Source of the DNA: a virus
Length of the DNA stretch: 64,000 nt
Strand: one strand, 5' to 3'
Virus record (IMG/VR): IMGVR_UViG_3300029812_000326
Coordinates: 32,001 to 96,000 of that record
Shown: positions 1 to 22,800 of the stretch, piece by piece
Numbering within the stretch: position 1 is the first letter of the stretch
How the letters are laid out: every line of letters starts with the position of its first letter
Position numbers and translations under genes: made by a program
Notes under the pieces: model-generated
Database searches by the model: none
The model's input: the letters and a program-made list of their open reading frames with translations, nothing else
What the model was told of the DNA's origin: nothing

Positions 1-2
1 AA

Positions 3-3000: not shown

Positions 3001-6000
3001 GGCGTTTAATAGGATATTATCTTGGTGATGGCAATGTTTTTAATAATGTTGGTAAAGCATATGGAATTGAATTTTGTTTTGATAAACACGAAATTTATTA
3101 TGCGGAAGATGTTCAAAATATAATTCATGAAATTTTTGGATTAAAATGTACAATTAGACGGAAAGGTTCTGGATATATAATTGTTCGCTGTTTGAATACA
3201 TTGGTTGGTCAACTATTCGAAACCATTTTTACGAGAAAAAAAATAGTTCCGGAATTTATTTATAATATATCAAATTCAGATTTTCATCGAGGCATTATTG
3301 AAGGACTATGGGAATCGGATGGGTCTGTTGATAAAACTGGAACTAATATTCAATTAAGTTTGGTAAATCCAAATATTATTTTATATGCATTTGAACAATT
3401 GTTGCGATTGGGCATAATTCCAACATTTCGAAAATCAGAAACAAACTATGAATCATTGAAAAAATTAAATCCAATTAAAAAGCAATATGGCGAAACATAT
3501 CATTTATATATTCCATCTAAATATAGAGTCAAGTTTTGGAAAAACATTCATATTAAAAAAGAAAAAAAGAGCCCAAAACCGAAACAATCTAAAATCAAAG
3601 ATACATGTTTAGTCGATGACAAATACTATTATATATCAATTTTAGATAAACAAACAATTCAATATGATGATTTGGTTTATGATTTTATGGTGGATCATAA
3701 TTTTAGTTATTGTGGTCCAACATGCACATATCATAATTCCAAATTGTCTTATTTTGGCGGAAGAATCAGATATTTTGAACCTAGTTGGTATACAAAAATT
3801 GTAAGTCAATATAAATATACGGACGCGGCATTGGGAACCAAGCTAGAATCATTATTATATACAGGCCCCTTAAGCGTATTAACAGATCCCTATCATTTCG
3901 AACGGGAGCATTTTTTCGATCGGCCTTATCCAACAACCGCTGGTCTTTTTTCAGATGTACCCGTAATTGGGTCAATCGCAGACATGACGATTGGAAGACT
4001 TTTAAAGCCTCAAGTTATGATGCATGAAGATGAATTAGAAGCAGCCCAAATGGGATTTGATGTAGAATCGAAAAATAGAATTTTACCCGGATACAATAAA
4101 AATACAATGCCACCTTTGCATGAAGCCCGACCTGGTTATTTTGCGCCAAGGCATACTATCCCATCAGTGAGCATGAAAGGAATGTTAGGAGATTCATTTT
4201 ATAGACTTACCGAAGCTGCTGGACTGCGAGGATTTATGACACAAGCGATATTGGGTCGAGAAGGGATCGGCCAATATGCCCCAGTGTATGATGATGCATC
4301 TGCAATTACTAGTTTCGGACATCAATTTTGGGACGCGGAAATAGGCGGTGGAATAATGTGTTTTGATGGGTCAACATTAATATCAACAACAAATGGATAT
4401 AAAAAAATATGTGATATCAAACCTGAAATGCAAATTGTCAATTTGTCAGGAATATATAAAATTAAAAACAAATTTAAAAGAATTCCAAATGATGATGATG
4501 AAATGTATGAAATATCTGTCAATTCACATCCTAATAAAATTAAAGTCACCGGAAATCATAAAGTACTGGCGCACAGAACCAAGTGCCATTGGAAATCGGA
4601 AAAATCGCATCGTCCAAATAATAATGGAATTTGTCCATATTGTAATAAAAAATTTGTCGAACATTTAAAAGAAATTAGAGTTTGTGATTTACGTCTTGGC
4701 GATTTTCTTATAACTCCGATCCCGATTGGACAAAATGAATACATTATTGATTTTGCAAAATATATGCCAATTTTCACAGATGATTTTGTTTATTCTCAAG
4801 GATCCAAAGAATTTTTTGAAATATATGAACGATTACAATTGGATGGTAATTTACAATATTCAGATTTTCATGATCAAAGATATTATGATGCGAAAAAATC
4901 TACTGGTAATCACAAAAAATGGATACGATATTTGCAATTAAATGAGGATTTATGTTATTTGATTGGATGGTGGATTGCAGAAGGCTGCATACAAAAGAGC
5001 ACTATGCACCTTATAATGCATAAAGATGAAATTGGTGTCGCCCATAAATTGGGTAATATCGCAAAACGATTACTTGGCATTGAAAATTACTATATTCGGT
5101 CTAATGGTGAAAATTGTATTAGTTTGTATTTTTCGCATCGGCCCTTTGTCAATTTTTTGAAAGCCGAATTTGGCTACGGATCACATAATAAATATATTTC
5201 GCATGACATTAAACAAATGAAAAATGAATATGTTTCCGCATTGTTGAAAGGACTCATGGAAGGAGATGGTTGGGAGAATGAATCCAAGGGTGGGTTTACA
5301 ACTGTTAGCCAACAGTTGTTATTGGATATGATAGAATTGTTTGCCAAATTGGGGAAATTGCCCCATGCATATAGTTATTATGAAATATCAAAAAATGGTG
5401 AGTATCCCCAGGGTGGAAAAAGGAAACCAACGTTGCGATATTATTTAAAATATAACAAAAATACACGTGGGCGATTCCATAATTTCATATTCAATAATAA
5501 ATTATATAAAAAAATTACAAAAATTGAACAAATTGATTGTCCACGGTTTTTGTATGATTTAGAAATTGAAGATGTTCATCAATATCAAGCAAATGGAATT
5601 ATTGCTCACAATAGTGAGGCTTGGAGAAGATTATATCCAAGAGAAAGATTTAAAAATTTGGTAAATCCAATCAGGAATTTGGCTCCAAATTGGTTGCCGG
5701 AAGAATTCAAAACTGGCGATCCATATTGTATTGGATTAGAATCATTGATTGATACAGAAAATGGATTGATAAAAGCAAAAGATGTTTCAGTAAATGATAG
5801 ATTAAAAACTCACGATGGTTCATATCGGCGAATCATGGCGGAAAAAATTAGAAATTTGAAACAAAATGAATTTGCATATGAATTCCGCATTACCGGATTG
5901 CCAGCAATTCCATCCACTATATTTTCTGAAGATCATCCCATTTTGGGATTAAAAAATTATGAAATTAAACAAATTCATAATAGGAAATATGGACAAAAAT

Positions 6001-9000
6001 ATTATCGCAAAATGCGTAATGCAAAATGTTACAATTTGAAAAAATTGCCGCATCCAAAATGGATTAAAACAAAAGATTTAAATCCAGGAGATTATGTTGC
6101 TTATCCGATTCCACAATATGAGGAAAAAAATATTATTATTGATATGGCAAAATATACTAAGTTCAAATACACTGATAGATGGATTTATCCAAAACATTGC
6201 CATCCGGAAATATATGAATATTTTTTATCCAATCCCTGCCCATATAATATTCAACAATTGGCTATAGAATTCAATGTTGAAGGAAGCACGTTGGATGCTA
6301 TTCGAGATCATATCAAAGCAAAACGCTACGCAATCCGGTATCCAAGATACATAGAATTTGATGAAGATTTAGCTGCACTTTGCGGATATTATGCTGCAGA
6401 AGGTTGGGCAGGAAACAATGGGGAAATTGGATTTGCGCTACATGTAAAAGAAAAATCTACAATTGTAAAATATTTGGATCATATTTTTAAAAAATTCATA
6501 AATCGAAGTGGAGAAATATATCAATATGAAAGAAATGGAAATGGAATTGACTATCGAATAGGTTCTGGTTATCTTGCTGATTTTTTGGGACAAATCGGGC
6601 ATGAAGCACATGAAAAGCATATTCCCAAAGAATTTTTTCATTTGCATAAATCATATTTAATTCCATTAATTAAAGCATATTTTGAGGGCGATGGTTGTTA
6701 TTTTTCAGATGGAAAACGCGCAAGATTTTCTGCAAAATCAGTTAGTTTACAATTATTATATGATATTAGAAATATATTATTATCCTGGGGCATAATAAGC
6801 AATATAAATTACGATCCTGGCGGCCGGACGTCAAAAATTGGAAATCAAATTATCCATGCTGGGATTTCATATAGTTTAAATATTAATTCAGAAAATGCAT
6901 TAAAATTGGCAAAATTGTTCCAAATTAAATTAAAATGCAATTCTAAAATGCTACATTCGTATTCATTCATCTACGATGGATATTTATGTATGCGCGTTAA
7001 TAATAAGCAAAAAGTTTCATGTGACCAAGTCATAGGATTTGAAATTGAAAACGATTCTTTTTGTGTATTAGGAATTGCAACTCATAATACTCACATCAAA
7101 GGGGGTTTGATTTTGCTTCCATCTCGCGCTCACGAAAAAATGTATCATGTGAAGCATAATTTTCCTATTGATTTAGAATATTTTGGATATGAACCCGGAG
7201 AGGCCGCAGGAAGACTATTGAAATTGATTAGACCGGAAAGAGAAGAAGAATATCATTATTCATTTATTAAAGAATTAATTCAAAAGCAATTATTGATGAA
7301 TAGGCAACTGCTATCCAAAGACGTGCCACTTTTTAATCCTTGGTCAAAGATTGAAGGGCATGTTGATGCTATTATTATGAATCAATCTGGAATTCCAGAA
7401 CTGATGCAAATAAAAGCAACTACTGCTGAAAAACTTGGATTCATGCAGCAGCCAAAACCGGCGCACGTATCTCAGCTCAATTTTGCTATGAGACAAATGA
7501 AGAAAAGATATGGACAAATACTTTATGTTGCGTCAGATAATCCAGAATTAAGTAAATCTTTTTATATAGAATATAATTCGGAACGATTTCGCAATGATAT
7601 GTCAAGAATAAATGAAGCTCGGGAATTGGCATCAGATATGTTACTCAAAGGCATTGGGCAAGTTGGAGAATCCTATTCCTATCCTGATAGATTACAAATT
7701 TTAGCCAATGTATCTCCGTGGGCTCCGGAATATAAAAAAGTTTTGAAGCAATGTAGATTGTTAAAAAGCCATGGATTACTGGATGAAGAAGATCAGGTTA
7801 AAGTAGACGAAGCCCGTAGGCAACATGATGCGATTATGAGGAAATTTGATTTTTATCCTCATCGATTTAGCCATGGTAAATGGCTTACTCCTGACCCAAC
7901 CTATAATTTGATGTCTCAGAATGAAAATATTAAAACTGCTGCAAAATATAATATTATTGAAAGATTAATGGGCGCAGCTTATGAACGATTATTGGAATTT
8001 GATATCCCGGTTGTCCATTCTAAATTGCTTCCATATTATACACCAGAACAAATGTACGAGAGACAAATTGGAGGCAGTTTCAGTGGGCAGTGGTCCAGAC
8101 CTATCCATGATTATATAAAACCCTGGTGGCATAGTTTTCTCTTATCAACGAATCCAGTTGCATCGGCGATTAAACTTGGATTTGCTGGTGGAGTATCTGC
8201 AGGCCCCCCCGGTGCCGCAGTTGGTTTGGGTGCGGGATTATTATATGGTGCTGGAAGAAGTGTCGCTGGTCCAGGAACTTGGGTTCCGAAAGAGGTCAGA
8301 AAAACCCGAGAAATCGATGAATATTTTGATGCTTTGGAATATATAAAAAATCGTCAATTATATGAACAAACCGGCGACCCGGAATATCTTAAGCGATCAA
8401 GAGAAACAATTTATGGTGTCACTCCTATGAGCACACCAGCCGAATTTTATAGATCGGTTCCGTATATGGAACGTCCATTTTTCTGGTCATTTGCTTCCAT
8501 ACAGGATAAAATTCAACAGGATAGAATTAAACAGCGGATTTCGCCAACCATGAGAAAACTTTTGGAGCACTATTGGTCTGGAGAGAAAAAATTTACTAAT
8601 CCAATGATAGAGGATTATAATCCAAATTTCCGAATGCCAGCGGAGGATTGGATGGGATGGAGAGAGGATATTCCATTGGAGGATATACAACTTAAAACTG
8701 TCAAAATGGAAGGGCTAGATTGTTTCATTCCTACGCAAAAATTATTGACACTAAATGGTCCAATCGAAATACAAAATGTTGAGATGGACACTGAATTAGT
8801 GAATGCCCAGGGAAAGTTGAAAACCCCAATCTGTATATTCAGAAAATTTTATAAAGGCGAAATGATTAAATTAGATTTTAAAGGAACGTATTTTGATTTA
8901 ACCGGAACAAAAACTCACGAATTGGAGATAGCCAAAAAATGCAGAAAATTTGTATTTAAAAAACAAAAACTTCAAGATGTGCGGAAATACAATAGATTAA

Positions 9001-9980
9001 AATTATATGGCTATAATTTCCCAGAAACATGCAAAAAATTCGATGATATTAAAATTTCGAAAGATTTAGGATTTATTCTTGGCTGGTTTTTGGCTGAAGG
9101 AAGTTATGTATATAATCCCCTAAATAAACAACCAAAAGGAATTGTATTTTCATTAAATATATTGGAAAATGATATTGCAAAAAAACTTCAAAGTAAAATT
9201 AATAAAATATTTGGTTGTAATGTTTCAATCCACGAACGAACATCTTCAACTTCTGGAAATCCATATTTGCAAGTTACATCATTTTCTGTCAAAATGGCGA
9301 GATTTATATATAAGTTAATCAATCCCAACGCAAAAACGAAATATCTACATCCAATTGTATTCAAATTTCCAATTCCGATTCTCGAGGAAATAATTCGTCA
9401 ATGGTTCAATGGTGATGGATGGAAAACAAACAAAGAGGTTTGTGTTTGTACCGCAAGCGAGAAATTGGCAATTCAGGGGTGGTATATAATGCGATCCTGT
9501 GGGATGGAAGCCGCGATACAAAAAGCAAAGCAATATGGATACAAACCAGGATTTAATTACAGAATCAGGATTGGTCGTAAAAAGGACAAGGAAATATTTT
9601 ATTCCAATTGGAAATATGTTCCATGGACCACATTGACGGTATCAAAAATATATCATGTTAATTATGAAGGCGATATTTATGATGTAGAAATGCCGAATAA
9701 TCATTATTATACAACAATTTGTGGAACTGTTCATAATTCCCATGATTTTGGATTGGGATGGAAACCTCAAGAATTAAGAATGCATAATTCTCCATATGCG
9801 GTCAAACCGATAGACATTTCCAGTCCTTCTGGAATATCCTATGGTCACGAAAATTTAGAATCGGCTGATGTAAAAAATTTTGTTCAAAACATTTTGCAAA
9901 GATATGGTATAACAAATACAAATGTAGCTGTTACAAAATCTCAGGGCAGTGGCGCGACCATATCATTAAATATTAATTAA
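3..9980 (+). CDS. Giant virion (ejection/tape-measure-type) protein with four inteins and a PD-(D/E)xK-like domain; 5' end lies outside the window
   Basis: Frame is open from position 3 (WHASISKHW...) into the 108 ATG. Glycine-zipper hydrophobic segments at ~2400-2459 and ~8175-8249. Position upstream of hub/baseplate genes. Confidence 0.65.
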   Translation, partial: WHASISKHWAARRHGAWPSIQELKRSIKERKAPHSMDIVRLYSDIVKDAKIQRKPYFKMEQQLNQILGVLGMRKDPEMLREMSKDTEIKKAFHEVLGKFERRPKQTFIEYALKTPERPADWAPRRLSTTSYIKRYAKEAQWDPETTNNVLKLLGGKELYYGKNILRKGNFSMFNASFTAGKVIDVMGKWKLPFINWHPFERMMITGIPKIGIPSKGSAFRILDEKQSALMAEAAIDADLNITRSPQLKIGEYFMRIGDHVFRFSPEKLIKRISGHWKVGVDTITAGERRYFQGMVESQTDYEHTGWLGHLRQKFELGRSPHFIGRRLKEYIIQDFNPESPHVLMHEKGKFAGMLERLQGDKIFSPREQKEFINYSRAIGRHLYGSEQNALELFHNNQGLRGKVLDILGGADAKKAKKILNDVNIDKVIDDLSMFDYALPEIYSQRTVQEVRRALHDVQNLVGADREFLLRSRATVVGQASNLSVQDYLMGQYFKKTLENYSKVGKITEDMYDKIFKSIDDAIVSKSEKSKAKSLFASMKINRPMSEHLNVYSDQEVINSLDTVGHLKDIISPNENLLRDVFKLDYRSLRESAKINRFMRDTLIPLEIRGYMGPINEIWRIQGHGVPSAPKDLFGAAPGFGDMITSSFNKFFRISDSATQINYEPYITKQSMLLHRWAIRPFNMTLGWIGLDLQYRSNAEFMKKFAMKRALAIPAAIYGYRAIDTFLTVNPLLNHTIFDDGLTSAGAQIIGKANVARAEVFDTLGITDKAQYLEGLMPGSMESPAAKLFRAAALPILGRKFGGGPGLMIGLGASAATGFGLPDLTRSADELRDVYSGRKLVPHRSGRYWETCVTHCPIMTYNGIKYPEEIIVGDKIKTFDGSVGKILAKSERKLIPNETVYNIKTSLPFKVELTGNHELYILRNDELRWIPTENIMTTDLLAIPFHKRTYKRKNLWLPNILDCSKIWTEGEILYPMQFKSCWSKSTKNGIPASIPLTREFGRLIGYYLGDGNVFNNVGKAYGIEFCFDKHEIYYAEDVQNIIHEIFGLKCTIRRKGSGYIIVRCLNTLVGQLFETIFTRKKIVPEFIYNISNSDFHRGIIEGLWESDGSVDKTGTNIQLSLVNPNIILYAFEQLLRLGIIPTFRKSETNYESLKKLNPIKKQYGETYHLYIPSKYRVKFWKNIHIKKEKKSPKPKQSKIKDTCLVDDKYYYISILDKQTIQYDDLVYDFMVDHNFSYCGPTCTYHNSKLSYFGGRIRYFEPSWYTKIVSQYKYTDAALGTKLESLLYTGPLSVLTDPYHFEREHFFDRPYPTTAGLFSDVPVIGSIADMTIGRLLKPQVMMHEDELEAAQMGFDVESKNRILPGYNKNTMPPLHEARPGYFAPRHTIPSVSMKGMLGDSFYRLTEAAGLRGFMTQAILGREGIGQYAPVYDDASAITSFGHQFWDAEIGGGIMCFDGSTLISTTNGYKKICDIKPEMQIVNLSGIYKIKNKFKRIPNDDDEMYEISVNSHPNKIKVTGNHKVLAHRTKCHWKSEKSHRPNNNGICPYCNKKFVEHLKEIRVCDLRLGDFLITPIPIGQNEYIIDFAKYMPIFTDDFVYSQGSKEFFEIYERLQLDGNLQYSDFHDQRYYDAKKSTGNHKKWIRYLQLNEDLCYLIGWWIAEGCIQKSTMHLIMHKDEIGVAHKLGNIAKRLLGIENYYIRSNGENCISLYFSHRPFVNFLKAEFGYGSHNKYISHDIKQMKNEYVSALLKGLMEGDGWENESKGGFTTVSQQLLLDMIELFAKLGKLPHAYSYYEISKNGEYPQGGKRKPTLRYYLKYNKNTRGRFHNFIFNNKLYKKITKIEQIDCPRFLYDLEIEDVHQYQANGIIAHNSEAWRRLYPRERFKNLVNPIRNLAPNWLPEEFKTGDPYCIGLESLIDTENGLIKAKDVSVNDRLKTHDGSYRRIMAEKIRNLKQNEFAYEFRITGLPAIPSTIFSEDHPILGLKNYEIKQIHNRKYGQKYYRKMRNAKCYNLKKLPHPKWIKTKDLNPGDYVAYPIPQYEEKNIIIDMAKYTKFKYTDRWIYPKHCHPEIYEYFLSNPCPYNIQQLAIEFNVEGSTLDAIRDHIKAKRYAIRYPRYIEFDEDLAALCGYYAAEGWAGNNGEIGFALHVKEKSTIVKYLDHIFKKFINRSGEIYQYERNGNGIDYRIGSGYLADFLGQIGHEAHEKHIPKEFFHLHKSYLIPLIKAYFEGDGCYFSDGKRARFSAKSVSLQLLYDIRNILLSWGIISNINYDPGGRTSKIGNQIIHAGISYSLNINSENALKLAKLFQIKLKCNSKMLHSYSFIYDGYLCMRVNNKQKVSCDQVIGFEIENDSFCVLGIATHNTHIKGGLILLPSRAHEKMYHVKHNFPIDLEYFGYEPGEAAGRLLKLIRPEREEEYHYSFIKELIQKQLLMNRQLLSKDVPLFNPWSKIEGHVDAIIMNQSGIPELMQIKATTAEKLGFMQQPKPAHVSQLNFAMRQMKKRYGQILYVASDNPELSKSFYIEYNSERFRNDMSRINEARELASDMLLKGIGQVGESYSYPDRLQILANVSPWAPEYKKVLKQCRLLKSHGLLDEEDQVKVDEARRQHDAIMRKFDFYPHRFSHGKWLTPDPTYNLMSQNENIKTAAKYNIIERLMGAAYERLLEFDIPVVHSKLLPYYTPEQMYERQIGGSFSGQWSRPIHDYIKPWWHSFLLSTNPVASAIKLGFAGGVSAGPPGAAVGLGAGLLYGAGRSVAGPGTWVPKEVRKTREIDEYFDALEYIKNRQLYEQTGDPEYLKRSRETIYGVTPMSTPAEFYRSVPYMERPFFWSFASIQDKIQQDRIKQRISPTMRKLLEHYWSGEKKFTNPMIEDYNPNFRMPAEDWMGWREDIPLEDIQLKTVKMEGLDCFIPTQKLLTLNGPIEIQNVEMDTELVNAQGKLKTPICIFRKFYKGEMIKLDFKGTYFDLTGTKTHELEIAKKCRKFVFKKQKLQDVRKYNRLKLYGYNFPETCKKFDDIKISKDLGFILGWFLAEGSYVYNPLNKQPKGIVFSLNILENDIAKKLQSKINKIFGCNVSIHERTSSTSGNPYLQVTSFSVKMARFIYKLINPNAKTKYLHPIVFKFPIPILEEIIRQWFNGDGWKTNKEVCVCTASEKLAIQGWYIMRSCGMEAAIQKAKQYGYKPGFNYRIRIGRKKDKEIFYSNWKYVPWTTLTVSKIYHVNYEGDIYDVEMPNNHYYTTICGTVHNSHDFGLGWKPQELRMHNSPYAVKPIDISSPSGISYGHENLESADVKNFVQNILQRYGITNTNVAVTKSQGSGATISLNIN
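2553..3737 (+). mobile_element. Intein 1 with LAGLIDADG endonuclease (395 aa)
   Basis: N-term C (RYWET|CVTH), block B TGNHE, LIGYYLGDG and IEGLWESDG motifs, C-term YHN|S. Confidence 0.95.
4359..5612 (+). mobile_element. Intein 2 with LAGLIDADG endonuclease (418 aa)
   Basis: GGGIM|CFDGST, TGNHK, LIGWWIAEG and LKGLMEGDG, YDLEIE...AHN|S. Confidence 0.95.
5727..7088 (+). mobile_element. Intein 3 with LAGLIDADG endonuclease (454 aa)
   Basis: GDPY|CIGLES, SEDHP, LCGYYAAEG and IKAYFEGDG, ATHN|T. Confidence 0.95.
8721..9737 (+). mobile_element. Intein 4 with LAGLIDADG endonuclease (339 aa)
   Basis: EGLD|CFIPTQ, TKTHE, ILGWFLAEG and IRQWFNGDG, YDVEM...VHN|S. Confidence 0.95.
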
Positions 9981-9982
9981 TC

Positions 9983-12900
9983 ATGCCAATTATTTACGAT
10001 CAGGAAGAGAATCAATTTCGCGATAGATTCGGATATTTATTTCCAACTGTTTTATTAGGTGGTGGGTTCATGGCCTGGAAAAAATATTATGGATCTCCAC
10101 AACTTGGAAGGAAATTTTCACCCCGCGCATTCATAGGGTTTGTCAAAGATCTAAGCTCCCAAGATTATTTAAGAAAATATCTTACAAGGCCGGATAAGCC
10201 AGAGCTTCCTCTTCAGCACAGACTAGTAGAAACTGCGGTAGAATATGAGAAAAGTAAATCGGTAATAGAATTTCTTACCGATGCTGATCTGAAAACTGTT
10301 CGTGAAATTGGTAAAGCCTTGCCAACTCCAATTAAAGTGGAAGAAATTGAATTTAAACGTCAGGTAATTAGACAATTCAATCCAGTAACCTATGATTTGG
10401 TAAGGAATAATTTAGAAAAGACACAAGAAGTATTTAATGAATTGCTCGAAAATGTTGAAGATTCTAAACATTTACAAAGTATTCTTAAACAACAACTTGA
10501 GCGATATAGATTTAGAAAATCCCATTTGCTTATATATTCGAAATTTTCAGAAATTATTAGTCCAGAAATGCTGAAAAGCGAAGCTGAGCAGACGGTTTTA
10601 ATGAGACAACTATGGGATACGCAAAAGAAACAAACTCAGGAAGCCAGAAGACTTGCACAAATACTTCAAAGAGAATCCCCGGAAACTATAGTAAATTTGA
10701 AAATTCCAAAAGTTTTAGAACGCGTTGATCCCGCCATTCTGATAGATGAAAGACGAGCGAGACTTCAGCCTGCTGGCAAAACAATCAATGATTCAGGTAT
10801 TAAATTGTCTTATACAGGTTATAAATCATTTCTTCAAACGCTCAGAAGAGCAAGAGTTGATTCCAAAGCTATTGCTGCAATTGAAACAATTGATCCAATA
10901 CTAAAGCAGCATTTAAATGAGCTTGCTCATACAAAAGCCCGAATTACATATGCATTACAAGATAATGCTTTTAATTTGCGAGCTGTAATCAAATTGTCTA
11001 TTCAAGTCAAAGAAGAAGGCAAAAGAGAAACCATTAACTTGAAGATCCCGCTCACTCGTGGTGGAAGATTAAGAGTCAATGGAACGCGTTGGATTCCTCA
11101 AAGATATAAAGGCATCAAACCACTCATTCCTGAAATAGAACGAATTGAATCTGATATTTATGAATCGATGATCCGTAATTTGAATAAAAGATTTAAGAAT
11201 GAAGTTTGGCATAGAATAATGGCTGGAGATGCCCGAGGTGGAGAACGAGCCATCAATACTTTAATTAAAGAGCCGATTGATGAAAGATTAATCATGGAGG
11301 TTGGATGTCCAGTACATGATTTCATTGAACAAAATGTAATTCAGGATGCTAAGCTTGGCTATTTATCTCCTACTCGCGGATTTAAAAATGAAGATGAAAG
11401 ACGTGCTGTGAGTGACCGATTTAAAAAAATGCAGAAACTTAAATTACTTCTGATGGAAGGCGATGGAAAATTAAAATTACCAAATAGGTATGCATTTATA
11501 GATTTTGAAACATTTGGAACAAAAACGAATTACCTGCCGCATCAGGTAACCATTGGAATAATTGAAAATGGCGCAGTTGTTGATTGGTATACAGGAAAAG
11601 TTGATCCTCGAAGTATTAATGCCAATTATGCTTTCCCGGAAATTGATTTGAAACTTTCATTCAAAGGAAAAACAAGAGAGCAGGTTATGAAAGAATTTGA
11701 TGAAATGGGGCAACCCATTAGTAAAATTCGAAAAGAGTTGGAGGATTTCCTGCGGAAAAATGCCAAAGGAGGAAAGCTTCCGGTTGCGGCTTGGAGTGCT
11801 AGTTTTGATGTGGATAGGGTAATGGGCCAGCAATTCTTAGGAGCCAAAGCCTATTTGGGAGAAACCTGGGATCCGATGGATCTCCAAAAAGCTATTGATC
11901 CAGATGTCCAAGCTTCAGTTTCTCTTAGATCTGTTGGACAATCGCGGAAAATTTTCATTCCGACATCTTCAAAGAAAGATTTGACTCTTAATAAGAAAGT
12001 TATTGAATCATTTAAAAAAGATCATAAACTAATGGCTATTTTGAAAGACAAAGATCCTGGATTTTATAGCAAATTGGCAAAAGCGATTTCTGAAAAACAA
12101 ATACGAAATCTAGTGATGCATGAAGCATCAATTGATGTACTTATGGCAAATAAAGTTTTTCAAGACATTGCGAAGGATATTAATTTACATTCTTCGGTAG
12201 TGATGCGCGATTTAAATGCAATGTTATTAGCATATCATCGCGCATTAACTCGCTCGATAAATCCAATAGACGTTAATCATTGGACTACCAGAGCATTGGG
12301 ACATAACTTCCCATCTCTTTCTCCTGCTCAGATTTTGCAAGGTAAATTTACGAACTTTGACATCAGAGATTTAGCTCCGCTTACGAATTTGGGCTTGGAT
12401 CCAACAAGACCATTTTATCAGCAATGGAACTCCGCGCGTCTGATTACCACCCATGTTCCTGACTTGGTCACGAAGACATATAAAAAGATCGCGAGTAGGC
12501 GCGGAGAAATTTTCAAATCGATGGATATATTAACAATTTTTAATCCATTAACTGCGGAAAATGCTGGCTTGATAGATTTTCAGGCCGCAGATGAAATGGC
12601 AATTAAAATGGTATCGAAATTGATTAGAATCCCTCACACTGGTAATTTGAAACTCATACCGGAACTCAAGGAGGCGTTTGAGCAGATAAAATCAGCAAAG
12701 ACTCCGAAAGATCGCGAAATTGTATTATCGAAATTGAGGCAGAAAATGGCGAAAGCCTATCAGAAGGGATCCCGGTTTAAAGAATGGCTGCCAGGATATA
12801 CTTTACTTGGAGAAGCGGAAGGATTTACATTTGATACTTCGACTCCATTAATGTCAGCGATTGAAAATATTGAATATAATAATGAAAATAGAGAAATAGC

Positions 12901-15900
12901 TATACGTCTTCAAACTGCCAGTTGTCCTGAAAAATATGGGCATCCAATGAAAATTTTTGCATATCCATATAAAGGAATGTTAACTCCAATAGAAGGATTA
13001 AGATCGATTACTTGGGTTGATGCCGTTCTTCGTAAAGATCTTGCAAAACGCGGCAGAATGTCAGTCATGTTAGGCCAAATTCAAAGATTGACTAGGAATT
13101 TCCAAACCATTCATTCGAAATTAACTCCATCCCAAACATTTCAATTTTTTGAAACAGTTAAAATTTTTGTGAATAAAATAAATTCAATGGGTGGTATTAA
13201 ATTAGATTGGCAAGTCAATAAAGGTAAACTTCAATTTATAGACGAAATAACGGGAAAAGAATGGCAAAAATTGGATCTCGGAAAAATTGAAAAAAATTGG
13301 TTACAATTTTCCGAAGGCGAATGGGTTAGATTTATGAAAGAATATTCCCAAAAAATCCGACATATGATGATTTCATTTGGGATTAAATATTCCAGACATG
13401 ATCCTCGCTTGCCTTATTGGACTCAAGGTCAACTTGAATCGATGCTATCAACTGAATGGGGTAGACGATATCCTAAAAAACTAGCATTTGCTGATTTGTC
13501 CCGAGCTGAACAAAATGTATTTCGGGAAAAAATAGAAGTAGAAATGCACGAACAATTATCAAAAAGTGAATTCTCCAAATTTTTTACAAAAGCAGAATTA
13601 GAACGTTGGAAATCCGGAACTTTAATGGAAGGCCATCTTTCTTTGATTCAACTATTCGGCGGTTCTTGGGGAATATTAGAAGTTACTCCGGCATCTAGAG
13701 CATATGAAGCCGGAGAATTATATGCTAAAGGTGCCGATATAAAAATCCCCAGCTTGGATGAATTAGTTGTGTCCGGACCAATAGCTCAAAGAATTGCTCG
13801 CACATTCACTGGCGAACAGCGCGATATGATGAATTATATGTCAAACATCCAGCCCCTTTTGAGATATGGAATCTTGCCTGAATCTCATTATCCAATTATA
13901 AAAGCCTCAGAAATAAATCTTGATCCTATGACAACTCATTTAGGATTTAAAGAGGAAATTGGAATCATAGAAGATAAATCTTTCAGAATTAAATGCGTTG
14001 AAACTGGGGAAATTTTTAATTCTTTGGAAGAAGTTCCAGACCGCTATTTGAAGCAATATACATTAAGACCCATGGGTATGAATGCATATATGCACCCAAA
14101 AACCTTGGAATCGATGTATGGACAACAACCAACTATAGTTGAATTCAATATAGGGAAAAAGAAGGTTTACCTTCCCAGACCGGCATTATCATTTATCAGA
14201 GGTGCGCCCGCCAGAGTCACGAAAAGCGGAGATCCTTATACCATCATTGGAAAAGAGATTCAAACATTTAAAAATCTATTGATTGCGGCATCAGATTACG
14301 AGAAAATTAAAGGGGACGAAGCAAAAGCCGCATTTGAAAGAAAGTTCTTTTCACGGGCTGAAGACTATAAAAATATGATATTAACGGATAAAAATGCATA
14401 TATAAAAATGACCAAACCAACGATTCCTGGAGTTCAAGGAAAGATTTCCATGGCATTTGCCCCCGGAATGGCTAAAGCGTTGGGATTGCCGCAAGATATG
14501 TTTAGCCATATAACTACAGGATTTGGGATACAGGGAGTATCTGTAAAGTCGATGGGCGAAGAATATTTTAATAAAGCCATGGATGTCCATCAAATAAAGG
14601 AAGGATCGAATGTTGGAAAATATAGAGGCGCCACAGGAATGGTTTATCCGAATAAAATGGCGTTTAGGGAAGCTCTTATTGAAGGTGAAGAATTACTTGC
14701 GGGAACTATTATCAGAACCCCCGCAGAAAACCGATTCGCATTTTTTGATACATTGATCACTGTTAAAAAAGATCAAGCAGCTGGAATGCGCCTCCAACTT
14801 AGAGAAGCATTAGCAACCCACTGTGATTATGATGGGGATATAGGGCGCCTAGTATTTGCCGAGTTTTCTCCCCAGGAGCAGGAGCAAGCTTTGAAAGATC
14901 TCATAAATAAGCAACACGTTGATAGAAAAGCACATGCAACATTAGCTGAAAGGATCAAAAAGCTTCAAGCAAATGTGCTTGAATATGAAACCGGCAAAGA
15001 CGTCGCAACCAAAAAACAGATTGTCAAGGAAATTGAACAAATTCAAGAACTTGAAAAAACAATGAACGTTAATGTCTATGGTCAAGGTATTTGGGTAAGG
15101 GAAGCTAAACCAAAAGCGATTCCAAAAGAAATTAAATTAGGAATTGGCGATGAAATGAGATTTCGAAAAATGAATTTGCATCAGTTTATGAAAGAATTGC
15201 CATCTATTGATCTTCCCGAAAGATTGATCAAATTACCGGGTGAAGAATTGGAACAACATCTTTCCAATATGCTTACGAAAACTGCTACAGCCTACTCGTA
15301 TAGAAAAGCAATGACCATGAGATCAGCAACTAAGCTATTTGGTGGAAAATTAACTGAACAATATTTGGACTTATATAATGAATTGGCCGGAAAAGTTACT
15401 GCATTCAAAAAAGTTCCATATGAAAAAGCTGAGCAAATAACTAGAGCTCTATTGGAACCAGAAGCTGCAGAATCGAAAAAAATTATGGGAGAAGTATTAA
15501 ATAGGGATGCGGAAGAACTTTGGCCACAATTTAAAGAATGGCATTCTGCACTAAATCGTGCCATGATGAGAAAGGAAGTTAATGAATTAATCAGTTCTGG
15601 AATGAAACGCGCCCCTATTACGGGTGGACAGTTGGCATTATGGGGTCCAAGTGCAGAAATCCCTGCTGCAGGAAAGACTCGCGCAATTTTAGACTTTTGG
15701 GGTAAAGAAAAGTTTCTTGATAGCTTTAAACGTCAAGGGAAAAAAGGCGGCATTGCAATTGCGTTGGCCGCGCTTGTCGCTCCGATTTTCCTGTCGCACG
15801 ATAATATATATGATAAAAAAGGATATCCAATAATTCCAACGAATTTCAACGTTGCTCAGCCAATATTCCCAGCCCCTATTCACATAATACCAAACGATCC

Positions 15901-16030
15901 ACCATCGCATCCTATAAGAACATTTAAACCTCAGATTATTGATCCTTTGCTTATTAATTTTGGTTCTGACAACAACTTAACAACAAGAAGGAATAGTGGC
16001 CAATATCCAAATGAATTGAGAAATTACTAG
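9983..16030 (+). CDS. Putative virion single-chain two-barrel RNA polymerase fused to a DEDDh 3'-5' exonuclease
   Basis: Exo motifs IDFET (11501), WSASFD (11792-11809), HEASID (12119-12136). RNAP motifs PMKIFAYPYKGML (12944-12982), IIRTP (R at 14714), HCDYDGD (DYDGD at 14825-14839). Confidence 0.72.
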   Translation: MPIIYDQEENQFRDRFGYLFPTVLLGGGFMAWKKYYGSPQLGRKFSPRAFIGFVKDLSSQDYLRKYLTRPDKPELPLQHRLVETAVEYEKSKSVIEFLTDADLKTVREIGKALPTPIKVEEIEFKRQVIRQFNPVTYDLVRNNLEKTQEVFNELLENVEDSKHLQSILKQQLERYRFRKSHLLIYSKFSEIISPEMLKSEAEQTVLMRQLWDTQKKQTQEARRLAQILQRESPETIVNLKIPKVLERVDPAILIDERRARLQPAGKTINDSGIKLSYTGYKSFLQTLRRARVDSKAIAAIETIDPILKQHLNELAHTKARITYALQDNAFNLRAVIKLSIQVKEEGKRETINLKIPLTRGGRLRVNGTRWIPQRYKGIKPLIPEIERIESDIYESMIRNLNKRFKNEVWHRIMAGDARGGERAINTLIKEPIDERLIMEVGCPVHDFIEQNVIQDAKLGYLSPTRGFKNEDERRAVSDRFKKMQKLKLLLMEGDGKLKLPNRYAFIDFETFGTKTNYLPHQVTIGIIENGAVVDWYTGKVDPRSINANYAFPEIDLKLSFKGKTREQVMKEFDEMGQPISKIRKELEDFLRKNAKGGKLPVAAWSASFDVDRVMGQQFLGAKAYLGETWDPMDLQKAIDPDVQASVSLRSVGQSRKIFIPTSSKKDLTLNKKVIESFKKDHKLMAILKDKDPGFYSKLAKAISEKQIRNLVMHEASIDVLMANKVFQDIAKDINLHSSVVMRDLNAMLLAYHRALTRSINPIDVNHWTTRALGHNFPSLSPAQILQGKFTNFDIRDLAPLTNLGLDPTRPFYQQWNSARLITTHVPDLVTKTYKKIASRRGEIFKSMDILTIFNPLTAENAGLIDFQAADEMAIKMVSKLIRIPHTGNLKLIPELKEAFEQIKSAKTPKDREIVLSKLRQKMAKAYQKGSRFKEWLPGYTLLGEAEGFTFDTSTPLMSAIENIEYNNENREIAIRLQTASCPEKYGHPMKIFAYPYKGMLTPIEGLRSITWVDAVLRKDLAKRGRMSVMLGQIQRLTRNFQTIHSKLTPSQTFQFFETVKIFVNKINSMGGIKLDWQVNKGKLQFIDEITGKEWQKLDLGKIEKNWLQFSEGEWVRFMKEYSQKIRHMMISFGIKYSRHDPRLPYWTQGQLESMLSTEWGRRYPKKLAFADLSRAEQNVFREKIEVEMHEQLSKSEFSKFFTKAELERWKSGTLMEGHLSLIQLFGGSWGILEVTPASRAYEAGELYAKGADIKIPSLDELVVSGPIAQRIARTFTGEQRDMMNYMSNIQPLLRYGILPESHYPIIKASEINLDPMTTHLGFKEEIGIIEDKSFRIKCVETGEIFNSLEEVPDRYLKQYTLRPMGMNAYMHPKTLESMYGQQPTIVEFNIGKKKVYLPRPALSFIRGAPARVTKSGDPYTIIGKEIQTFKNLLIAASDYEKIKGDEAKAAFERKFFSRAEDYKNMILTDKNAYIKMTKPTIPGVQGKISMAFAPGMAKALGLPQDMFSHITTGFGIQGVSVKSMGEEYFNKAMDVHQIKEGSNVGKYRGATGMVYPNKMAFREALIEGEELLAGTIIRTPAENRFAFFDTLITVKKDQAAGMRLQLREALATHCDYDGDIGRLVFAEFSPQEQEQALKDLINKQHVDRKAHATLAERIKKLQANVLEYETGKDVATKKQIVKEIEQIQELEKTMNVNVYGQGIWVREAKPKAIPKEIKLGIGDEMRFRKMNLHQFMKELPSIDLPERLIKLPGEELEQHLSNMLTKTATAYSYRKAMTMRSATKLFGGKLTEQYLDLYNELAGKVTAFKKVPYEKAEQITRALLEPEAAESKKIMGEVLNRDAEELWPQFKEWHSALNRAMMRKEVNELISSGMKRAPITGGQLALWGPSAEIPAAGKTRAILDFWGKEKFLDSFKRQGKKGGIAIALAALVAPIFLSHDNIYDKKGYPIIPTNFNVAQPIFPAPIHIIPNDPPSHPIRTFKPQIIDPLLINFGSDNNLTTRRNSGQYPNELRNY

Positions 16031-16301: not shown

Positions 16302-16805
16302 ATGCCATATAAAGATCCAAAAAAACGAAAAGAATATCAGTAGGAATATTTACAAAAGAATAAAGAAAAATTAAAAATTCGCAGGCAGAAATATTATCAA
16401 GAAAATAAAGAAAAAATTAAAAAATATCTTCAAGAACATAAGGAAAGTGTTAAAAAACTTAAATTGAAATATATACGAAATCATCCGCATCGTGTTTGGG
16501 CAACGCATACCTTTAATGGTCATAAACACCGAAGATTTATAATTAATATTTCTATCGACGAACTTGAAGAAATTGCTAAAAATATAACTCATTGCCCTAT
16601 ATGTAATAGTGAATTCAAATGGAAACAAGAAAAACAATGTGATAATACACCATCTTTGGATCGGATTAATAATGGAAATAATATTGATAAAAATTCAGTT
16701 TGGATCATATGCAGTAAATGTAATCGAACAAAATCGAATAGGACTCTTAAAGAATTTATAAATTACTGTGAATTGGTTTCGAAAAAGGACTTTAATATCG
16801 AATAA
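16302..16805 (+). pseudogene. HNH-like (His-Me/endonuclease VII-type) homing endonuclease with in-frame TAG at codon 14
   Basis: MPYKDPKKRKEYQ*EYLQKNKE... is in frame with the 16464 ORF; CPIC...PSLDRINN...N...ICSKCNRTK. Confidence 0.75.
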
Positions 16806-16807
16806 TT

Positions 16808-19800
16808 ATGAAAGTATATAATCCAATAGAGTGGAATATTGGTGTGCATGGTGGCTATGATAACCCCGATGATGCTAGAAATATAGTGCAGCCTCTTTTT
16901 GATTTATTGAATTATTTAAATCGATGGTGTCAAGACCAGGGAATGAATCATATTATTATTACTTCTGGAAGACGGGAGGCAAAGTATAATGCTAGCATTG
17001 GAGGAAGCCCAACAAGCTATCATTTGACTGGGCATGCGGCAGATATTGCCATAATCGGGCGCTATAATAGATGGGAACAAACTATGATTTACAATTGGTT
17101 GCACACTGTATTTGCTGATCAACTTGCTCAAGTTTTATATCATGGTACTGGAGGTAATTATCATTTACATATAGGAATTCGGAAAGGATCTGAAGGCATG
17201 GGGCCACTTTTGGAAACTGAAAGCAAAAGTGAAGGAATTATTGAAGAAAAAAAGCCCGGAACCAATTCTTGCAACATTATGAATGATAATATTATGGGAT
17301 ATAATGAAACAATTGCGACTCAGATACCGCTTGATATTTATAAAACGAGCTATGAATTACTTCAGGATGTTACTGAAGAAGAAAAAATTGATCCGTTGAT
17401 TGCATTAGCTCAAAAACCAGGATCATTTAAATTTGGCGCATGTTGGCTAACCGTGCCTCCAACATCAATTGCTTTTACAGAACAAAACAATATTGTTGGA
17501 ATTCCAACCCTTCGTACTAAAGGCAATGTATATTGGAGAACTGGCATCAATTCAATAAACATGGACCTTGAATTTTTGTTTCCAGGATTGATTCAAATTA
17601 ATGACGAATTGAGACATATAATTGCTCAAATTAAAAGATGCCCATTTTTACCTTTCGAAAATTATTATTTGCATTCATTGATATTTCCGGAATTAAAATC
17701 TGCTAAGCCTCAACCTGATATCCCATATGAATTTACCACGGAAGAAAAAACGCAACATGAAAAACAAACTGGCACTCAGGATAGACTTCAACAGCAGCAA
17801 TGGCGATTGAAAAACAAAAAGATTATGGATATAGTCAAATCCGGAGATGAAAAAAGCCTGAAAGAATTTATTGAAAAAGGTAAAAAATATGGATATTTTA
17901 TTCAAGACGCGGAATCTCAAGAAGATAGACGCGAAAGAACTGAACAGCTTGAAAAGCTTTATGAATGGATGGGAAAATATAGACATATTGATGTGGATGA
18001 TACTAGTGGATTAAGCTACCGAGATCAACAAATGGTAGCGGCAATACGATCAATATCGATTACATCTGTGCCCGGATTTCCCAAAACTCTTCAAATGAAT
18101 TGTTCCTGTGATATTTTTAATTATTTTCCTTATACTTCTGCGTTTAGTTTCATAGAAAATGAAACAAAAAACGAAGTTCCGGTTTTCAATATTTCCAAAA
18201 GTGCACTGTTTGGAAAATATTATAAAGGAATGCTCACTAGAAATAATGCCCAAGAATTTAAAGATGCATTTGAATCCACAACAAAATTGGAAGCCATTGG
18301 ATCTGATGAACGTATGGATTATTTGCATCTGAGATATATTTATTCTAAAGAATCGAAAAACCGAGCAATATTAGCTCAAAGAGCTATATTGGAATATATA
18401 CAAGCGATCAAAGATTTTGGAGAAAGCTATGAAGCAGCGCCAGCTGCAGAATTATATCAAAATCTTTTCATATTTCTTACGCATCCCAATTTTGGAGGTT
18501 GGCAAAATCTATTTGATGCGCCTGGAAACGTAATAGATGCCATAAAAGAATTGGGAAAAGATGCAGTAATCGCAGGAAAAAGTATTATTGCTGTGGTGAA
18601 ATTTTATCAAGATTCTTTTGGGGAATATTTACTTGGCATAAATGCAAATAATGAAATATATGTCATAGGTAATAGGAAAGGGCGGGAATATTTCCTTCCA
18701 CTTAAAGATGCAATTAAAAATCCGGAATATCGGACAAGATTATTATTTTATATTAAAGATTATTCAGTTAAAATCCGATCGTTACAATATAATCAGCGGG
18801 ATTTGAAACTTGGAGATCAGAATTCTCAAATAGTTGGAATTTCAGCATCAATGGAAACAAAACTTGTGCCAATGAATATATTAGCATTTACGAAACCAAC
18901 TTTCCAACATCTTGGAAATTCAGAATGGGTTGTTACATTAACGGTTGAAACATCAGATCCAAATTTAATAAGAGATTTTCGCATGATGACTGAACGGCTC
19001 AATCAAACCGCCTTATCACAAATTGCAGTGTTACCGGAAATTCGGGATTATGCGGATCTTTCTGCGCAAATTGTTGAAGGACCATTTTTTAAACTTTTAG
19101 GAATAGAAAATATAATTCCTGGTAATTTCAGATATTCTACCGTGGAAGGAAAACCCGGCATATTCCATATTCAAATCGATTTTGTACAATCCGATTTAGA
19201 ATTGAAAACATATGAAGCACTTCAAGCTCCTGCATATTTTCCGTCTGATTTTATCAAATCATTCATTAAATTAATCCCAGTGTTATTGCTTGAAAATATT
19301 TCTTCTAAACTTGAAGCTGATTGGAATAATTATCACATTATTCATAAATATAAAATTGGAATGCAGCTTTTGCATCAAACATTAGAAAATTATCCGAAAT
19401 GGTCAAAATTTCTATTTTATTTATGTAAACCAATTCCAAAATCTTTATGTTCAGAATCAATTCCAGTCTATAAATTTATTCTTAATGACATAAGTTCCGA
19501 ATTAATTGCAAAAAAGCAACAAAAAGATTTATTTAAATGGGATTGGAAAGATATCCTTATGTACGCCGGTGCATATTTTACTGCAAGATTGGGGGCGGGA
19601 CCGGGTCCAGTTGGTGATGTAAGAGCCCATTCAGGTGCGATGGCAGCAAAATTTACATTTACGAATTTACTTAACACTACAATATTTGCGGCATATAAAG
19701 GTGCCGTTGGACGACAATTGAAAGCAACGTTGAATGAAGCCATAAATAGGGAAAATGTTCCGTCCGAATTAAAGATTGATTCAACAGAAAATGGACGGAA

Positions 19801-22800
19801 ACTTCTTGAACTTATAAGAGAAAATCAAAAATATCTCCATATCAGAAATTCGACGTATCCTGATTTGGAACTTCCAATTATCGCAGATTCTCCTGATTTT
19901 TGGTTTTTCCGAGAACCATTATATAATGATAACATTCGAGAATTTGCCGATGTAATAGTCAGTGGGCATGAAGATATAGTTCTTAAATTGGCGAAACTTA
20001 ATTCTATGAATAAACAAGGAAAAGCAACTACCCAATTGGCTAAATTAGATCAAATTGCTAAAGAAGCCAAAATTAAAGAAGTTTTGGTTTCAGAAGAACT
20101 CAATAAAAATTTATTGAGCTATTTAAGAGATGCAAATGAAGATTTACAATTCAATATAGAAAGATCTAAAGATCTTAAAGAAAATGCACATCTTATGATG
20201 GAAACAAAGCGAAATAAATCTCAAGAATATTCGGGGCGCGCAGATGAATCGACATTAAGAAGCAGATTATCAAGGATTAAACATGATATGGAATATTATA
20301 ACGATTCGTTGAAAATTATAAATTTAATAGAATTAAAAAACATGGATTTCCAAACTACGGGCGATCTGTTGGATATTGCATTAGTTTTAGCAAAAAATTG
20401 GGGAATTTGTACTCCGAGGGATGCGCAACTTGAAAAACAAATGCTTCAAGATGCTATGAATCTTGATGAAAATAAAACTTTAAGATTGGGTCGGGCATTT
20501 CCAACTTTTAAATTATATTTTATAGAAAAAGATAAAGAAGAATGGTTATTGTTTGATGATTTTTATGGATATGGCGCAGTAAAAGAAATTCAAATAAGGA
20601 AAATTAGAAAATCTCCGATTCATACTGCGGTAGTTACATTATCAAATATCACTAATGTACTTCAGGATATTCATGCTCCAAAGAATGAAAATATTTCTAA
20701 ATCAGAAACGGCAGAAGAGCAACCAAATATTGACACTATGCTTCTTCAAGAAGGTTGTGAAATAATGATTAAGATGGGCTATGAAAATGATTCCAATAAA
20801 TTGAAAGTTGTATTTCAAGGATCGATTGTAAGTATACAGCCCGGACCAGAATTGCAATTTATTGCACAAGGGTGGGGAGCAGAGCTTGGCCAGCCAATTC
20901 AAGATTTTAGTGTTGGAAAATGGAGCACAATTCGGGATTTCGGAGATATAGCGACCGCAATTTTAAATAAAGTTTCTGGATTGAGGCATTTTGGAACAAC
21001 ATATAATTTAGCAGAAATGTTTGATGATCTACCAAATATTCAATACAGATCTGATCGTCGAGAAACATATGTTGGTAGATTGAAAAATTGGTCGCTTCAA
21101 GGATTGGGGCTAAATCCACTGCTTGATCATAGAGACGACAACGTTTGGTTGCCATATCATAGTCCTCCCAGCATTTGGTCGCTAGCCCATATTATAGAAG
21201 GAAAAGGATTTGCATTTGATTGGAGAGTATATAATAAAACCGCGTGGGATGCACTTGATGAGGTATTGAAATATATGCCGGGATATATTATGAAGATTTT
21301 GCCTTATAATGAAGATAATTTGCAGTCTGCTAGATGCACATTATATATAGGCCCAAGGGATGGATATTATATGGCTACGGATGATTCAGAAGTTGTCAAC
21401 AGGACATCGGAACATGATAAATATCAAGAAAGAAGAAATAGATGGTACATGCGCGTTAAAGGCATAAAAGCACCAACGAAACAAGAATTGATAATTAAAC
21501 TTAGAAATTTTAACATAGATTATGATAGCAATACAAGTATAATTTATAAAGAATTTATAAATCAAAACATTATTTGTCAAAATGATGAATGCAGCTTAAT
21601 GAAAGCAAGTCCATTTAATCCAACAGTAGTTCAATGGAGTGGACAATTATATACCATGGAAATTCTATTTGGAGGAAACGAAATATGTCATAAAATTAAT
21701 AAAGAACATTGGAAAAGACAATATTTTAATGTTTTAAATGGTTCAGGTATGACACGGGCCATCATGATATATGATGTTTATGACAAACTTCATTTCAAAG
21801 ATTTTGAAAGAGTCTACGGTAAAGCTAGCCTCTTTGAACGAGCAACTGAAGGAGTAGAAAGATTTACTTATGGGAAAGACGATAATCCTAAAAGGCTGGC
21901 CGGAAAACGAGGATGGAAACGAGCATGTAAAACTCATTTTATTGATAGTTATCATCACATAATTGAAAATAATATGAAAGCTTCGCGCGAAAATATGTAT
22001 AATAAGGTTCACTTAATCTATCCAAAAGGCGAACCTCAAATGGCTGCAAATGAAACGCAACTTAAAACTGGAGATTTATCTGAATTTGAAATGCTTGCAG
22101 ATGACAATATAAAACCTGATATGATAAGAACGCATAAATTATTTTTTACCAATATTGACGTTGATCGAACAAGAAATTTTATAGATTCAATTGGAAATGT
22201 TCTTAAAGGTCTTGGGCAAACGATTGGACTTAATGATCGTGGGAATTTTCCCGATATTCCACCATACGCAATAGTAGCGAATACGATACTCGCTGAAGAT
22301 TTGAAAGATATGTATGATGGAGAAATTATTATTTTGCTCGATCCAAATATTGATATTCATGATGTAGTCTATATATACGATGATGTAAATGAAATTTATG
22401 GGCCAGTTGGAGTAAAAGAAATTTATCATTATTTCTCTATGGCACATGGAGCTTATACAGTAATTGTGCCCGATCTTATGTCATATCCCAGTAATCTAGA
22501 ACAAACTGTTGAATTGGGTTATGCTTCAGCATTATATGCAGCATTAATTAAAATAGTCCTTGGTGGCATTTTAATTGGTGGAGGCGGCGCGCTTTTGGCT
22601 GGGAATTTGCTTGGACCATGGACTGGAGTAGGAGTCGCGGGATTTAGTTTGGCATTTACGTATAAACTTGCTTCTTCTATAGGTTCTGGTGGAATAAATA
22701 AACTCATGGGAAGAGAGGGTTCTGAATTCGTGCCCATATGGAGAAAGGGTGCCCCATTTCTTGCTGGAATGGATGGATATAGAAAAGATGATCTTATAGT

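Follow-up and report, generated by a model that had tools for sequence, protein, structure and literature searches.

Two-barrel RNA polymerases (RNAPs) have eight universal residues in common (PMC2919709). In QDE-1 these are D709, R738, K743, R962, P964 and D1007/1009/1011; in the Rpb1-Rpb2 pair, R446/P448 of Rpb1 make up the RxP motif, K979/K987 of Rpb2 are the basic pair of the beta-type barrel (barrel B), and D837 of Rpb2 is the barrel-B Asp, associated with the second Mg2+ (PMC2919709). Tail- or virion-borne two-barrel RNAPs have been published for the long-tailed Thermus phage P23-45, for crAss-like podoviruses and, in the form of multisubunit enzymes, for phiKZ-like phages. P23-45 gp96 is a virion RNAP of this type fused to the tail tape measure protein, with activity and packaging shown experimentally (Chaban et al. 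2024, PMC10770324); beyond the motif, its authors detected no similarity in sequence to other RNAPs. The gp66 protein of phi14:2 is the virion-packaged two-barrel RNAP of a crAss-like phage (bioRxiv 10.1101/2020.03.07.982082). Here we describe ORF-B, a 2,015-amino-acid (aa) open reading frame (ORF) in the tail module of an uncultured giant phage with a contractile tail. It lies in a window of 64,000 nucleotides (nt), corresponding to bases 32001-96000 of the 108,870-bp IMG/VR record IMGVR_UViG_3300029812_000326. On balance, we take ORF-B to be a single-chain two-barrel polymerase of a new and very divergent kind, which carries a fused DEDDh exonuclease and is delivered from the tail.

Conservation of candidate two-barrel polymerase residues in ORF-B

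The ORF-B segments that bear on the polymerase assignment are listed below with window coordinates.

9983..16030, + strand: ORF-B, candidate polymerase chain (P0001), 2,015 aa, single open frame
12848..13117, + strand: candidate beta-type barrel (barrel B), residues ~956-1045, with invariant E961, K990, K997, D1013, R1023 and R1025
13697..13780, + strand: alternative barrel-B candidate or other functional block, residues 1239-1266 (R1239, E1242, E1245, K1249, G1250)
14417..14872, + strand: candidate beta'-type barrel (barrel A), residues ~1479-1630, with invariant G1486-K1487, P1494, G1501, R1578, P1580, H1613, D1615, D1617, G1618 and D1619
15260..15328, + strand: bridge-helix-like segment by by-eye likeness, residues ~1760-1782, with invariant T1765-K1766

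The lysine motif PMKIFAYPYKGML occupies residues 988-1000 (12944-12982), the Arg of IIRTP is residue 1578 (14714), and DYDGD occupies residues 1615-1619 (14825-14839), 37 residues after R1578. All three motifs stand in the translation of 9983-16030 where a first-pass annotation of this DNA had placed them, and the distance of ~37 aa that it gave between RxP and DYDGD is also correct and falls within the 35-43 aa of four reference enzymes. The spacings from the Arg to the first Asp are as follows.

ORF-B: 37 aa
E. coli beta': 35 aa
P23-45 gp96: 38 aa
phi14:2 gp66: 39 aa
YonO: 43 aa

A D.DGD match is expected 0.025 times in a protein of the size and composition of ORF-B and 0.45 times in all ORFs of at least 100 aa of the 108,870-bp record, in which the one match observed is that of ORF-B. 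This rarity is by itself not decisive. We next examined the motif residues in relatives of ORF-B, which the first-pass annotation had no access to. Word-indexed searches with ORF-B returned close relatives only, and among 1.8 billion representatives its relatives formed only three full-length clusters at 50% identity; a further two distant loci and a fragment came from IMG/VR, JGI metagenomes and GTDB genomes. The resulting family comprises six full-length members with 26-88% identity, all metagenomic, plus two fragments. Identity is 84-88% among P0001-P0003 and 26-30% for L011, L012 and P0005.

Across the six full-length members, 276 of the 2,015 columns (13.7%) are invariant. These include E961, K990, K997, G1486-K1487, R1578, P1580, H1613, D1615, D1617, G1618 and D1619, and the barrel-B residues E961, K990, K997, D1013, R1023 and R1025 are invariant in the fragment P0006 too. 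The DYDGD block shares first place in conservation among the 8-aa windows of ORF-B, as does the RxP block among its 12-aa windows. The first-pass annotation had named beforehand, as a check, whether homologs conserve the lysines and RxP...DYDGD; the outcome clearly favored the assignment, with invariance down to 26% identity.

The two lysines, 7 residues apart, are the only invariant basic pair with a spacing of 4-9 residues upstream of barrel A, and the only invariant acids in range before K990 are E961, 29 aa before it, and E971. The distance from E961 to K990 equals that from D709 to R738 in QDE-1 (29 aa). Moreover, a Gly directly follows K997 in ORF-B, as it does the second barrel-B lysine in beta, YonO, gp66 and gp96. 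The region of residues 1239-1266 holds the most conserved 20-aa window of ORF-B; this block is preceded by no invariant acid and is for that reason a less likely seat of the two lysines. As judged from these alignments, K990 and K997 are likely the lysines of the beta-type barrel. ORF-B has a candidate for each of the eight universal residues, with Glu replacing the barrel-B Asp. By eye, a G-K...P...G segment ~90 aa before RxP resembles the first barrel-A strand of beta', and a T-K-T-A segment ~150 aa after the Asp triad resembles the bridge helix core 'LKTA...Y..RR' of E. coli beta'.

Recurrence of the signature in the same gene slot of other phages

ORF-B is the middle one of three giant co-directional genes in a row, between the following two neighbors.

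1..9980, + strand: ORF-A, 3,615 aa, starting 5' of the window at record base 31133, with inteins and a Cas4-like domain
16808..22942, + strand: ORF-C, 2,044 aa, baseplate hub/tail lysin, with an N-terminal Peptidase_M15_3 domain and phrog_20474

We searched IMG/VR with the hub protein ORF-C rather than with ORF-B and obtained nine further contigs. In six of the nine, a complete ORF of 1,537-2,322 aa lies directly upstream of the hub gene, and the A-B-C gene order is kept across the ORF-B relatives and the hub contigs. The hidden Markov model of the ORF-B family matched none of the six slot ORFs. Each of them has exactly one match to DxD[GA]D or D[FYW]DxD, located at 72-77% of its length (80% in ORF-B), and a single RxP 39-75 aa upstream of that match. 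In 48 other ORFs of the same contigs, the background of DxDxD-type matches is 0.128 per 1,000 aa, and the chance that all six slot ORFs have a match is ~6e-5, with position and RxP left out of the count.

Four of the six slot proteins form a BLAST-linked group. Full-length hhalign of the ORF-B family against this group placed the K997 region first (E value 0.016) and the DxDxD region third, collinear with the K997-region match, and the group has a conserved basic residue in an 'HKG'-like context ~500 aa before the triad. The K997-region match favors K990/K997 over residues 1239-1256 as the barrel-B lysines, and the spacing in the alignment indicates that a long connector between the two barrels is a shared trait. 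The motif observation is real and far beyond chance, and we consider it probable that ORF-B has the chemistry of a two-barrel polymerase.

One further hub contig is organized differently. At L023:3506-9608, the slot consists of two ORFs (1,291 and 745 aa) devoid of an RNAP-type motif, the only related string being DVDID at residue 1185 of the first. A polymerase in this slot is thus not universal.

A DEDDh-type exonuclease domain precedes the candidate core

Upstream of the candidate barrels, ORF-B contains one domain with recognizable relatives.

11402..12142, + strand: DEDDh-type 3'-5' exonuclease domain, residues ~474-720, supported by Pfam, PHROGs and residues

The Pfam family PF16473 (Rv2179c-like) matched with an E value of 4.6e-5 and 23.6 bits, below the 27-bit cut-off, and was matched by four of seven family members; phrog_192 ('DNA polymerase exonuclease subunit') matched ORF-B with an E value of 7.7e-6. 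D507, E509, H713 and D718 are invariant residues and position 609 holds D or E, so that the Exo I DxE, Exo II and Exo III H-x4-D motifs of DEDDh enzymes (DnaQ, RNase T, Rv2179c-like) are conserved in all members of the ORF-B family. The domain differs from known DEDDh exonucleases in scoring below the Pfam gathering cut-off, in having no sequence match in the PDB and in being fused within a giant tail-module protein.

An exonuclease was also present in one of the six slot proteins. The 1,820-aa protein encoded at L027:1087-6546 has a DNA_pol_A_exo1 domain at residues 234-389 (E value 4e-27), with a lysine motif and DFDKD (residue 1396) downstream of it, and has no sequence similarity to ORF-B. 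Another four slot proteins had no detectable exonuclease. The order of exonuclease followed by polymerase signature in both ORF-B and the L027 protein argues for a functional link. The link could consist in the trimming of RNA after backtracking, in resection that exposes a template at the end of the incoming DNA, or in true proofreading. It is conceivable, if rather unlikely, that the exonuclease and the two-barrel core act on the same nascent strand. ORF-B would then be the first enzyme of the two-barrel type to have a DEDD nuclease for proofreading or trimming in its own chain. One possibility is a transcriptase that proofreads; another is an enzyme that is injected, resects the end of the incoming DNA and copies it. 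The architecture would have arisen or been kept in at least two slot families that lack mutual sequence similarity, those of ORF-B and L027.

Comparison with described polymerases and evidence against the assignment

P23-45 gp96 is a single chain with both barrels, as proposed for ORF-B, and resembles ORF-B in that its gene directly precedes those for the distal tail within the tail module, in its DxDGD triad with RxP upstream and in having a membrane segment in the same chain. The two proteins differ in many other respects: gp96 has 5,002 aa, belongs to a long non-contractile tail, and carries the polymerase at its N terminus with a metallopeptidase in the same chain, whereas ORF-B belongs to a contractile tail, has its core in the C-terminal 55% of 2,015 aa and a fused DEDDh exonuclease, and the peptidase is found in ORF-C. 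Moreover, the activity and packaging of gp96 are experimental results, whereas those of ORF-B are predictions. ORF-B is not a member of the gp96-type family, since hhalign against gp96 residues 1-1200 gave nothing beyond the motif, the core is C-terminal, and no tape-measure family matched; at most, the two would function in a similar way.

The phi14:2 protein gp66 is likewise a long chain (2,180 aa), mostly of unknown fold, with the barrels in the order that we propose for ORF-B, beta, then beta', and with RxP at a similar distance before the triad. However, it stems from a podovirus, its triad reads DFDID, its connector is ~140 aa long, it has no exonuclease, and it shows no profile similarity to ORF-B. 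YonO and the QDE-1-type RNA-dependent RNA polymerases (RdRPs; PF05183) have the eight-residue catalytic constellation for which ORF-B offers candidates, and the lysine motif of YonO looks like that of ORF-B; YonO differs in its size (839 aa), in being encoded outside the structural module and in being non-packaged. As far as these comparisons can tell, ORF-B is not a member of any described RNAP family.

A number of results weigh against a two-barrel polymerase. Pfam and PHROGs searches with the whole of ORF-B and with its sub-regions, at E values up to 10, returned the exonuclease only. No match was found by tblastn of ORF-B against the INPHARED phages, and phmmer and profile searches of PDB sequences gave chance matches only. 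Neither PF00623 nor PF05183 had a match in the whole record, and PF05183 did not match ORF-B at E values up to 10. Alignments of the ORF-B family with gp66, beta, beta', gp96 and YonO by hhalign were not significant; the barrel-A signal against beta' and gp96, which was reached by 2-3 of 100 shuffles, rests on DxDGD itself. The AlphaFold2 models had a mean predicted local distance difference test (pLDDT) score of 42 (residues 740-1900) and 49 (residues 1455-1830), with motif regions below 50, and double-psi barrels, which the first-pass annotation had named as its other check, were not obtained from these low-confidence models. We found no convincing repeated promoter-like motifs in the non-structural regions. 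Furthermore, the barrel-B acid of ORF-B is Glu, as opposed to Asp in known two-barrel RNAPs, and the connector between the barrels, at ~430 aa, is three times as long as that of gp66 or QDE-1. Finally, we know of no RNAP with a counterpart of the fused DEDD exonuclease.

A barrel-A profile found nothing in the phi14:2, P23-45, 0305phi8-36 and E. coli records, and Smith-Waterman alignments of ORF-B with beta and beta' gave z scores of 0.9-1.4 relative to shuffles. Foldseek and VIA-align on the ORF-B models returned helical noise only, as both models are of low confidence, and a whole-part search of the ESM Atlas was uninformative. A language-model look-up with residues 1470-1650 ranked a cluster with PF05183 RdRP third (score 0.83); we treat this as a lead only. 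To gauge the sensitivity of such searches, we used phage 0305phi8-36, which encodes a YonO-like RNAP (PMC7824862), as a control: a sequence search with YonO misses this published gene. Negative sequence searches thus say little in the two-barrel superfamily, whose members commonly cannot be linked by sequence or profile.

The tail module and a model for delivery

In the record, terminase, portal, protease, major head protein and a 905-aa tail sheath are encoded 5' of the window, and the sheath and tube genes precede ORF-A, ORF-B and ORF-C. ORF-B starts after a gap of 2 nt from the stop of ORF-A. ORF-C has tblastn matches to the hub proteins of 0305phi8-36 (gp147) and vB_AbaM_ME3, and 3' of it lie a gp25-like sheath initiator, a Baseplate-J-like wedge and fiber genes. 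With the sheath gene upstream, a hub-like giant gene as its neighbor, and genes of the gp25-like and Baseplate-J-like types farther downstream, ORF-B indeed occupies the place given in the first-pass annotation, between a giant protein and the baseplate hub of a contractile-tailed phage. The same annotation had proposed a divergent virion RNAP. This reading is partly supported: motifs, conservation, setting and recurrence in six other phages speak for a divergent polymerase, while we infer both the packaging in the virion and RNA as the product.

Hydrophobic stretches occur at both ends of ORF-B.

10031..10078, + strand: Gly-rich hydrophobic N-terminal segment, residues ~17-32, read from the translation
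15737..15808, + strand: C-terminal hydrophobic helix, residues ~1919-1942, followed by a Pro-rich tail, identified by Kyte-Doolittle hydropathy

The C-terminal helix is the sole ORF-B segment with a mean Kyte-Doolittle hydropathy above 1.5 over 19 residues. The N-terminal segment stays below this threshold; its G26, G28 and A31 are invariant in a five-sequence alignment (A1). A Gly/Ala-rich hydrophobic stretch near the C terminus is present in all three giants (ORF-A 8181-8258, ORF-B 15737-15808, ORF-C 22559-22657), and after ejection these stretches may together form a membrane conduit.

The record also encodes its own DNA polymerase, primase-helicase and sigma factor.

L004:7628-8653, - strand: phage sigma factor (phrog_351, E value 2e-22)
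L004:8820-12017, - strand: DNA polymerase, 1,065 aa, adjoining the sigma factor gene
L004:570-3098, - strand: primase-helicase

The sigma factor and DNA polymerase genes correspond to record bases of about 101627-106016. The presence of a separate DNA polymerase, primase-helicase and sigma factor makes a replicative role of ORF-B unlikely and a division of labor with sigma-directed host RNAP plausible.

We propose the following model. ORF-B would fold into a lysine-bearing beta-type barrel (~956-1045) and, after the connector of ~430 aa, a beta'-type barrel (~1479-1630), in which D1615, D1617 and D1619 would bind the catalytic Mg2+ and R1578 would position the 3' end and the nucleoside triphosphate. 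The protein would be made late, along with the tail genes, and would be kept in the virion, most likely next to ORF-A inside the tail lumen. Upon sheath contraction, once the hub lysin ORF-C opens the wall, it would be ejected, its hydrophobic ends would anchor it at the membrane, and the first genes of the DNA to enter would be its templates for transcription. At a later stage, the phage sigma factor would redirect host RNAP, which would then take over. Delivery from the virion is plausible given the co-transcription with tail genes, the conserved place, the hydrophobic stretches and the precedent of P23-45, whose gp96 is a tail-borne two-barrel RNAP (PMC10770324).

If this model is correct, a single-chain enzyme in the tape-measure neighborhood of large contractile-tailed phages would be new, and its recurrence in the same slot across unalignable lineages would imply that bringing one's own polymerase through the tail is widespread and old. 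The two-barrel superfamily, which is used to reason about the origin of transcription, would gain a new sequence family with ORF-B. The 3'-5' exonuclease in cis raises the question of whether a two-barrel enzyme can be coupled to proofreading of the DnaQ type or to end processing.

Alternative explanations

The alternative that survives best, although unlikely, is that ORF-B is a structural tail-lumen, tape-measure or ejection protein with an exonuclease, in which RxP...DxDGD forms a metal-binding or protein-contact site devoid of polymerase activity. DxDGD resembles Ca2+-binding loops, and the tape-measure neighborhood, the length of ~2,000 aa and the hydrophobic ends would suit such a protein, as would the failure of the low-confidence AlphaFold2 models and the null profile searches to give a polymerase fold or profile match. 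Phage 0305phi8-36 has a comparable trio, gp145-gp146-gp147, whose middle gene is annotated as the tape measure and lacks DxDxD. However, the RNAP-specific partners of the triad, namely, RxP at the right spacing, the Lys pair and the acid, are all invariant, and slot proteins unrelated to ORF-B carry the signature at the same relative position as well. Moreover, no tape-measure Pfam family matches ORF-B; indeed, neither ORF-A nor ORF-B, the two giants that fill the tape-measure slot, had a match to a tape measure protein profile. The DxDGD block also has neither a Gly at position 6 nor a Glu at position 12, both of which mark EF-hand loops, and we rejected an EF-hand reading on these grounds. 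A RecJ/DHH reading of DxDGD was rejected as well, since the motif details did not fit.

In 0305phi8-36 (L013, record 46786-65979), gp145 (1,930 aa), gp146 (2,537 aa) and the hub gp147 have all been detected in virions. A DxDxD motif and homology to ORF-B are absent from both gp145 and gp146, and the YonO-like RNAP of this phage (PMC7824862) is encoded outside the trio.

It is very unlikely that ORF-B is a two-barrel polymerase that works on DNA together with its in-cis DEDD exonuclease, as a virion-delivered DNA-synthesizing or end-repairing enzyme with PolD-like chemistry or as a proofreading polymerase, instead of being a plain transcriptase. An exonuclease N-terminal to the polymerase is the typical order of proofreading DNA polymerases, and here an exonuclease lies N-terminal to a polymerase-like core in two sequence-unrelated slot families, those of ORF-B and L027. 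Two-barrel enzymes do include a DNA polymerase, archaeal PolD (PMC10770324). Yet the phage has a separate DNA polymerase and primase-helicase, the characterized phage two-barrel enzymes are all RNAPs, and the exonuclease is undetectable in four other slot proteins.

That ORF-B is instead a non-packaged polymerase, a late intracellular RNAP for late genes with an incidental place among the tail genes, has a parallel in the non-virion two-barrel RNAPs of P23-45 and SPbeta but is very unlikely, given that even very diverged phages have kept the gene between ORF-A and the hub, that it is tightly coupled to the structural genes by the 2-nt gap after ORF-A, that its hydrophobic ends are like those of both giant neighbors, and that the host enzyme has a phage sigma factor at hand for transcribing late genes.

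Neighboring genes and genome context

CheckV estimated the completeness of the 108,870-bp record at 53%, which suggests a phage genome of ~200 kb. In three related viral records, which are only 36-53% complete, no second, paralogous polymerase was found.

The relative of ORF-B in L011 has recognizable neighbors on both sides. The C-terminal extein of ORF-A is 46% identical to the gene upstream of the L011 ORF-B relative, and ORF-C is 34% identical to the gene downstream of it. ORF-A (window 108-9980) contains several inteins, counted as four, with five stretches matching Pfam LAGLIDADG_3 (E value 5e-39) and a match to Intein_splicing (E value 4.5e-26); its Cas4-like domain (phrog_1706) spans residues 2389-2510 of the part within the window. 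The L011 relative of ORF-A seems to bear an intein remnant as well. A separate Cas4-like gene is present in the record.

L004:5812-6726, + strand: separate Cas4-like gene

An HNH/endonuclease VII gene lies within the baseplate module (window 27623-28369) and, together with the inteins of ORF-A, indicates that mobile endonucleases are frequent in the structural operon. The 1,065-aa DNA polymerase also has what seems to be an inserted endonuclease (phrog_4645 at residues 639-828). Between ORF-B and ORF-C, a 113-aa ORF (window 16464-16805) gave weak zinc-ribbon matches (E value ~0.004), and a 227-aa ORF is found at the corresponding place in L011.

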